This document shows positions 11,289 through 12,003 of a DNA stretch of 14,378 nt, piece by piece (the first letter of the stretch is position 1; each line of letters starts with the position of its first letter). This stretch comes from a virus (taxonomy: Duplodnaviria > Heunggongvirae > Uroviricota > Caudoviricetes). Where the stretch lies: the IMG/VR virus record IMGVR_UViG_2706794664_000003. One strand, given 5' to 3'. The notes under the pieces were generated by a model that did no database searches, had not been told where the DNA came from, and saw only the letters and a program-made list of their open reading frames with translations. Position numbers and translations under genes: made by a program.

Positions 11289-12003
11289 ACACCTTTCGGC
11301 GCGAACAGGCCCTGGTATTCATTGGCGATGCTGTGTCGAATCACCTGCTCAGGTGTAAAACCCTGCTGACGGAATTTTTCCAGTTCCCGTATCGCCCCGT
11401 TAGCGCCCTGCTCCGTTCGAATCGGTTTTCGCAATGCCTGTCTGAACCGGACCCACTCATGCCAGAGTGTTTCCGGCAACCAATCGGGCAGCTCAATAGC
11501 CTCCGGCTCGAATTTTTTAGACGCTCGTTTTTGGCGAGGGGGAGATCAGTATTTAGATCTTCCTCTTCCTCTTCCTCTTCCTCTTCCTCTGGTAACGCTT
11601 TTTGATCCGTTTGTGTAACGCTGGCAGCGTTACCTTTTCGTTTCAGTTCGCGTATTTTTGTTACTCGCTCGTTTGTAACCGCCCGTTTTTTTTTAGAGCT
11701 TTTTCCGTTATGACGTTCAAAGTTAGGTAGAGAAAGCCCACCGTCATTTTCGACCAGCCATCCAACCTGAATTAACGCATCAGCAAAACCAGACATAAAA
11801 GTGATGCGATCTATTGCACTTTTTGTAACGCCGCGAGCGTTACAATCTGCATTACCGTCTATCATTTGTTGATCCGCCCATGCCCAGAAGCGAATAACCT
11901 TCCCTAATGCGGCATCTGGATCAATATTCAGAATCTCAGCAAGCCTGAATATTTCCGGCTTATCCGGCGTAATAACCTCGAGCTTTATCCAGTTTGAAGC
12001 CAT
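11289..12003 (-). CDS. replication initiator (replisome-organizer N-domain, DnaT-like C-domain), frame interrupted and 3' end in gap
   Basis: ATG at 12003. N-terminal frame runs through an E10 tract to a stop at 11341; the continuation (FEPEAIELPDWLPETLWHEWVRFRQALRKPIRTEQG...) is in another frame and has no start of its own. One extra A in the A6 run (plus T6 at 11513-11518) joins them as ...AKNERLKKFEPEAIELPDW... Confidence 0.6.
11558..11590. repeat. hexanucleotide microsatellite (TCTTCC x5.5) encoding a Glu10 tract
   Basis: Perfect tandem repeat on the plus strand; on the coding strand GAG GAA x5 in the initiator linker. Confidence 0.9.
11615..11633. promoter_or_regulatory. palindrome GTAACGC-N5-GCGTTAC, copy C
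   Basis: Arms GTAACGCTG / CAGCGTTAC; inside the initiator linker-coding region next to the Glu tract and a T-rich stretch (11640-11700). Confidence 0.5.
11825..11843. promoter_or_regulatory. palindrome GTAACGC-N5-GCGTTAC, copy B
   Basis: TGTAACGC cgcga GCGTTACA inside the initiator N-domain coding region. Confidence 0.5.

Follow-up and report, generated by a model that had tools for sequence, protein, structure and literature searches.

A 10-bp deletion in the linker-coding region of a Rac-like prophage replication initiator gene of Shigella sonnei

Organization of the locus

The window analysed here, i.e., the whole stretch of 14,378 nucleotides, corresponds to contig CWSV01000113.1 of Shigella sonnei (assembly GCA_001255555.1). 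It includes the gene order cro/ydaT, initiator, and DnaC-like loader (ydaV). The middle gene, a frameshifted replication initiator of a Rac-like prophage, extends over positions 11210–12003 of the minus strand. The lower coordinate is approximate, because the 3′ end of the gene together with its stop codon lies inside a run of 252 N (positions 11037–11288), and this hidden end was read off sibling contigs. The run masks the last 26 codons and the stop of the initiator as well as the start of ydaV, and the integrity of the end of the initiator gene in the window contig is known only from the siblings. Exactly 242 nt separate the identical flanks in seven relatives, compared to 252 nt in the window; the length of the N-run thus does not reflect the real sequence, and the run resembles a scaffold gap whose size was estimated. 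A second N-run occupies positions 3562–3674.

The downstream gene ydaV (positions 10447–11203, minus strand; 5′ end under the N-run) encodes a DnaC/IstB-like helicase loader (Pfam IstB_IS21, E 4.5e-18) of 248 aa in sibling contigs. Four prophage tRNA genes, Gly(TCC), Thr(TGT), Arg(TCT), and one with a CAT anticodon, are clustered at positions 5863–6173 of the minus strand. The latter was assigned to Met by ARAGORN and is given as tRNA-Ile in the record of the closest relative.

In intact relatives, the initiator is a single coding sequence of 260–266 aa. The frame actually open in the window begins with the ATG at position 12003 and is closed by a stop at 11341–11343 (11341–12003, minus strand). 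It encodes 220 aa, of which residues 1–156 are authentic and residues 157–220 are out-of-frame missense; the ORF reads ...DLPLAKNERLKNSSRR..., in a fuller stretch ...EEEDLNTDLPLAKNERLKNSSRRLL.... The protein collection lists exactly this sequence under the name 'bacteriophage protein [Shigella sonnei]'.

The part of the gene resembling DnaT (...KKFEPEAIELPDWLPETLWHEW...) is read in the −1 frame relative to the 220-aa ORF. The readable portion of this DnaT-CTD-like domain covers positions 11289–11491 (minus strand) and is now untranslated, and the remainder is under the N-run. The −1 frame reads ...SKY(stop)SPPRQKRASKKFEPEAIELPDWLPETLWHEWVRFRQ.... Its TGA stop (positions 11546–11548, minus strand; …SKY(stop)SPPRQKRASKKFEPE…) is situated just upstream of the deletion described below and closes the C-terminal frame on the 5′ side. 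Direct reading of the frames confirmed that the N-terminal frame and the DnaT-like C-terminal frame are one base apart, as stated in the original prediction made from the letters of this DNA.

Three perfect copies of a 19-bp palindrome, GTAACGC-N5-GCGTTAC, were found at a spacing of about 200 bp, against 0.04 copies expected by chance. Two of them lie inside the initiator coding sequence (positions 11615–11633 and 11825–11843), and the third one lies immediately upstream of the initiator ribosome binding site (positions 12017–12035). All three are candidate initiator sites, plausibly serving as its origin or operator.

Protein family and domain composition

The match of the intact relative to phrog_2509 ('replication initiation protein') took in the whole profile (positions 1–277, E 1.2e-89). 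The window ORF matched positions 1–157 of 277 only (E 8.4e-75). Its N-terminal domain is thus homologous to the phrog_2509 family, and no single polypeptide spanning the whole profile is encoded by the window ORF; because the match stops at 157/277, the ORF was assigned as a pseudogene of this family. Pfam gave no usable match either for the protein reconstructed in the original prediction or for the intact relative, for which nothing was found at E up to 10. None of the curated HMMs bearing the YdaU name (Pfam DUF1376 or NCBIfam) matched, and NCBIfam gave only a sub-threshold DnaT tail. The YdaU name stems from the PGAP annotation of relatives ('phage replication initiator YdaU family protein'). 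For the N-terminal 160 residues, AlphaFold2 run on the single sequence gave a model with a mean pLDDT of 53.5 and a pTM of 0.38, which was too poor for a fold search.

Residues 170–262 of the intact relative were similar to residues 92–179 of DnaT (PDB 2ru8, E 9.5e-5; PDB 9zbt, E 3.2e-4), and the alignment took in the terminal VNTVSxPDSxIPPGFRG motif. In the window, DnaT-CTD-like sequence is present in the −1 frame as far as the N-run. E. coli DnaT (2ru8, 9zbt) resembles the initiator in having an acidic linker followed by a CTD with this motif. It differs in that the N-terminal half of the initiator is unrelated and, in the window, the CTD is untranslated. The NCBIfam DnaT equivalog model NF002770 gave 16.2 bits vs. 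a cut-off of 201. By these comparisons, the DnaT CTD is a shared domain, and the initiator itself is not DnaT. The CTD of DnaT forms filaments on lagging-strand ssDNA and is preceded by an acidic linker (PMC13377028).

The intact protein consists of an N-terminal domain, a basic stretch, a poly-Glu linker, and a DnaT-CTD-like C-terminal domain. The GTAACGC-N5-GCGTTAC palindromes, which lie within and ahead of the gene, are probably the sites recognized by the N-terminal domain; the DnaT-like CTD would then engage ssDNA, after which YdaV would recruit the host helicase.

The O protein of bacteriophage lambda is a two-domain initiator, with ori-lambda inside the O gene and the helicase-loader gene next to it. 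The initiator resembles lambda O in that candidate binding repeats are located within its own coding sequence and a helicase-loader gene follows. In contrast to the four clustered iterons of lambda, the repeats of the initiator are palindromes about 200 bp apart, and the sequence link to lambda-type O is limited to a partial match to phrog_678 ('O-like').

The 10-bp deletion

When the gene was compared by megablast with complete E. coli genomes, 1418 of them matched, including 679 in which the match covered 80% or more of the query. The top E. coli matches have one annotated CDS of 789–801 bp between ydaT and ydaV. The closest relative, E. coli FDAARGOS_944, was 99.3% identical across window positions 4223–14290. 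Its initiator WP_038340159.1 (phrog_2509; 'DNA replication protein O' in phage records) has about 97–99% nucleotide identity to the window gene and shares with it the order ydaT-initiator-ydaV, the palindromes, the N-terminal domain, and the C-terminal frame. Compared to this gene, the window lacks 10 bp of the linker, which leaves the two domains in different frames, and has three additional A's and two additional GAGGAA units in frame.

The same picture was obtained by MAFFT alignment of the window with three intact E. coli genes and E. coli FDAARGOS_944. Three length differences separate the window from the intact genes. Two of them, A9 instead of A6 (+3) and two extra GAGGAA units (+12), are in frame, and the 10-bp gap alone is frame-breaking. 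Gapped BLAST against the closest relative misplaced the indels (+1 and +1), which MAFFT resolved as +12 and −10. Intact genes read CTGATC-TCCCCCTAAA-TCCCCCT-CGCC, and the window reads CTGATC TCCCCCT CGCC, i.e., the 10 bp TCCCCCTAAA are missing. Alignments with the intact genes and repeat counts across loci identify the single remaining TCCCCCT repeat (positions 11537–11543, minus strand) as the deletion junction and the true site of the frameshift. Across this junction the intact, ancestral protein reads ...DLPLNPPRQKRASKKFEPE...; further readings of the intact sequence are ...LNPPRQKRASKKFEPE... and ...EEDLNTDLPLNPPRQKRASKKFEPEAIELPDW.... The loss of 10 bp, a number not divisible by 3, occurred at 7-bp direct repeats and has the same junction in S. 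sonnei loci L005–L018. Slipped-strand mispairing between the 7-bp direct repeats, spaced by 10 bp, is the most likely origin of the deletion.

An exact-pattern scan of IMG/VR, with loci anchored on the C-terminal frame, revealed 93 loci with two copies of the repeat and 12 loci with the deletion junction (one copy). A continuous ORF of 260–264 aa (MASNW...PPGFRG) was present in 79 of the 93 two-copy loci. The remaining two-copy loci were at contig ends or had other lesions, namely A7 in the first A-run (n = 2) or a deletion inside the C-terminal domain (n = 3). In none of the 12 one-copy loci was the C-terminal frame joined to the N-terminus. The isolated phages vB_EcoS-666R9, vB_EcoS-673R7, and vB_EcoS-613R10 match the gene over its full length; vB_EcoS-666R9, the one inspected of the three, has an intact two-copy gene with A6, annotated as replication protein O. 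The deletion was absent from the 549 complete E. coli genomes that matched a 91-nt junction query, none of them with more than 91% identity. In the best of the 549, E. coli 2013C-4974, the TCCCCCT repeat is damaged in another way, the first copy having C4 instead of C5, and PGAP flags the gene as 'frameshifted'. Like the window, this strain has an initiator gene inactivated within the repeat-rich linker, but by an independent event, the loss of one C rather than of a whole 10-bp unit.

From residue 157 on, the deletion puts translation out of frame, and the predicted product is the N-terminal half followed by 64 missense residues, with no DnaT-like domain. Such a truncated initiator could no longer pass the origin to the helicase-loading step. 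A loss of initiator function would be expected from this, and the absence of autonomous replication of the prophage is a reasonable prediction.

Possible expression of the split gene

The N-terminal fragment could keep its DNA binding. Both frames are open over a stretch of 200 nt, in which spontaneous −1 slippage could give traces of a full-length-like protein. On this basis, the product with residues 1–156 may still bind the palindromes and be kept as an origin-blocking or autoregulatory protein against incoming related phages, or rare −1 slippage on A_AAA_AAU may feed residual replication. We consider either form of this residual activity very unlikely.

Even less probable is that a −1 ribosomal slip on A_AAA_AAU (positions 11512–11518), leaky or programmed, gives a functional full-length initiator. 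The heptamer is in the correct 0-frame register (X_XXZ_ZZN), and a slip would yield ...LKKFEPE... with the C-terminal domain in frame. However, the two-frame split is not conserved, as the 79 continuous IMG/VR genes mentioned above and all inspected intact E. coli and phage genes are single ORFs. As a stimulator of −1 frameshifting, we looked for an SD-like sequence upstream or a structure 5–9 nt downstream. There was no SD-like stimulator upstream of the heptamer, and the downstream RNA structure was marginal and started about 20 nt away (z = −1.77; 8 of 200 shuffles were as stable). E. coli heptamers lacking stimulators reach at most about ten-fold over a background of 0.055%, and motifs of the A_AAA_AAC type are rated as being of low efficiency, no explicit value being given for A_AAA_AAU itself (PMC4066793).

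The two halves could also be separate functional proteins, the C-terminal domain starting from its own codon. The original prediction stated that the downstream frame has no start codon; in fact, an in-frame TTG, the one codon at which a separate start could occur, is present at position 11479, and the C-terminal frame is otherwise intact. Still, no Shine–Dalgarno sequence was found at a normal spacing upstream of this TTG, and there was no gene call at it in the eight S. sonnei loci shown, one of which is the window contig. A single polypeptide is described by the family profile and encoded by at least 79 relatives. In addition, the common A8 allele of S. sonnei (see below) truncates the N-terminal part even earlier, which argues against the upkeep of a two-part system. 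We assign to separate functional halves the same slight chance as to the ribosomal slip. The original prediction is supported in its view that this is one split gene and not two, and in the DnaT-like nature of the C-terminal part (PDB 2ru8, 9zbt, E about 1e-4).

The A6 run in the linker

The run at positions 11513–11518 (T6 on the plus strand, A6 in gene sense) is present as the original prediction described it; the text around it in gene orientation is ...GCCAAAAACGAGCGTCTAAAAAATTCGAGCCGGAG.... That prediction placed the lesion in the run, as a sequencing under-call or as a real inactivating mutation, and proposed T7 as the repair. An added A does join both frames on paper, and homopolymers are frequent sites of indels. 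The resulting ...AKNERLKKFEPE... is not, however, the ancestral sequence, and A6 is the wild-type length of the run, encoding Lys-Lys in the intact frame. A6 was found in all 105 IMG/VR loci carrying the segment, in all 19 pattern-matched sequences, and in four sequences of one alignment, intact single-ORF genes included. The segment around the run, CGTCTAAAAAATTCGAG, is identical in the window and all aligned relatives (the three intact genes and FDAARGOS_944), and in one intact Rac-type gene, from a phage fragment, AAACAA stands at the position of the run. A verified T6, named in the prediction among the findings that would speak against it, was obtained: besides the window's own contig, seven S. 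sonnei loci of separate samples have T6, as do over 100 relatives. Among relatives and assemblies, the run showed A6 throughout and not the varying length that an under-call would leave.

The deletion site is located about 25 nt upstream of the run in gene sense. The 27 nt between them match the wild type only in the C-terminal frame (SPPRQKRASKK). Since the wild-type reading (PPRQKRASKK) is thus in the −1 frame already upstream of the A-run, it is at the repeat, rather than at the run, that the frames diverge. A frameshift in the homopolymer, by under-call or by 1-bp deletion, is therefore almost certainly not the explanation. The original prediction was right about one broken gene, and about a real mutation as one of its two options, and wrong about the place of the lesion, which is not a T6/T7 homopolymer change in either sense.

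Inheritance of the deletion in S. sonnei

At least 19 contigs, which come from independent assemblies of S. sonnei and from read-run re-assemblies, encode the exact 220-aa product. Eight loci are shown, the window's own contig (L005) and seven from separate NCBI/Logan samples, and junction and A6 are identical in all of them. Apart from the deletion, the C-terminal frame of these eight loci is undamaged and ends with ...VRPETLLRQVNTVSLPDSAIPPGFRG and a stop, after which ydaV starts. Logan re-assemblies ERR200546 and SRR30464381 carry the exact 220-aa product, and one contig was seen in 18 samples. A second, commoner S. sonnei allele (product P0003, at least 73 contigs) has A8 at the first A-run together with the same 10-bp deletion. 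On the grounds of this recurrence in independent assemblies, the deletion is a real, clonally inherited mutation of the S. sonnei lineage and not a sequencing error; as the S. sonnei carriers are all clonal, the recurrence shows that the mutation is real and says nothing on selection. An assembly or sequencing artefact of one draft genome might be suspected from the two N-runs of the contig and the repeat-rich region, but it deserves practically no credence given the identical junction in the seven other loci, the exact 220-aa product in NCBI assemblies and independent Logan re-assemblies, the deletion in the A8 allele and in 12 IMG/VR contigs, and the loss of 10 bp, which is atypical as a short-read error.

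The contigs of loci L014–L018, which carry the A8 allele, break off some 23 nt before the initiator ATG, inside the palindrome that matches window positions 12017–12035. In locus L013 (S. sonnei GCA_001261315.1, a 72.8-kb contig), the A8 allele, starting from codon 47, directly follows a gene of 220 aa; the latter is preceded by a block of ydaV, DUF977, and a 118-aa gene, and a second ydaV is located after the A8 allele. This arrangement suggests rearrangement or recombination between two related prophage regions.

Instability of the linker-coding region

Besides the TCCCCCT duplication, the linker-coding region contains two further variable elements. The hexanucleotide repeat GAGGAA (five copies at positions 11560–11589, minus strand) encodes the poly-Glu acidic linker; its copy number varies among strains and always stays in frame. 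From 2 to 5 copies were found in intact E. coli, phage, and IMG/VR genes and from 3 to 11 in S. sonnei assemblies, the A8 allele included. The repeat has VNTR-like behavior, and short-read assembly could be the source of some of this variation. The second element is the first A-run (positions 11686–11694, minus strand; T9 on the plus strand). In intact genes it is A6; two IMG/VR loci have A7 with a frameshift, the commoner allele of S. sonnei has A8, and the window has A9, the three additional bases being in frame and adding one extra Lys. Among the homopolymers of the gene, it is this run that is truly unstable. Transcriptional slippage at A9 was considered as a means of rescue and excluded owing to stops in the intervening frame (…TETKR(stop)…SKY(stop)). 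Because of these stops between the A9 run and the deletion, an allele with both A7 and the deletion would not encode a restored protein either.

The same initiator gene has been inactivated independently in E. coli 2013C-4974 (L019) and in IMG/VR loci L076, L085, L087, L049, and L117. The lesions in these loci are C5 to C4 in the first TCCCCCT, a deletion in the DnaT-like domain (…RTEQGDTGTGK…, then a stop), and A7 in the first A-run. Overall, at least four other independent lesions were found in the gene elsewhere, two of them within the linker. Taken together, the A-run, the GAGGAA repeat, and the TCCCCCT duplication show that the linker is a hot spot of indels.

Decay of the prophage

Further genes of the window are also damaged. 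The ydaT-family gene (positions 12081–12502, minus strand) is frameshifted by a 1-bp deletion after codon 13, near 12464/12465 and not in a homopolymer. The rha-family gene (positions 13632–14337, plus strand) encodes 160 aa vs. 282 aa in the closest relative and adjoins a 77-aa fragment of an IS transposase orfA; window positions 13568–13944 did not align with the closest relative. With ydaT frameshifted and rha truncated beside an IS fragment, the prophage is regarded as a decaying remnant. The sibling locus L012 has an intact 140-aa ydaT together with the 10-bp initiator deletion, which suggests that the initiator deletion preceded the ydaT deletion.

We conclude with high confidence that the locus is a pseudogene of a Rac-like initiator, inactivated when its linker-coding region lost 10 bp and with them one of the two direct TCCCCCT(AAA) repeats; the prophage is predicted to be left with no autonomous replication. 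It is an ordinary frameshifted prophage pseudogene with a mutation of a well-known kind, and it raises no new biological question. The main value of the finding is a correction: the gene should be annotated as frameshifted, with no repair at the homopolymer, and its listing as a 220-aa 'bacteriophage protein' is inappropriate. For S. sonnei, the deletion represents one documented step in the decay of its Rac-like prophage.
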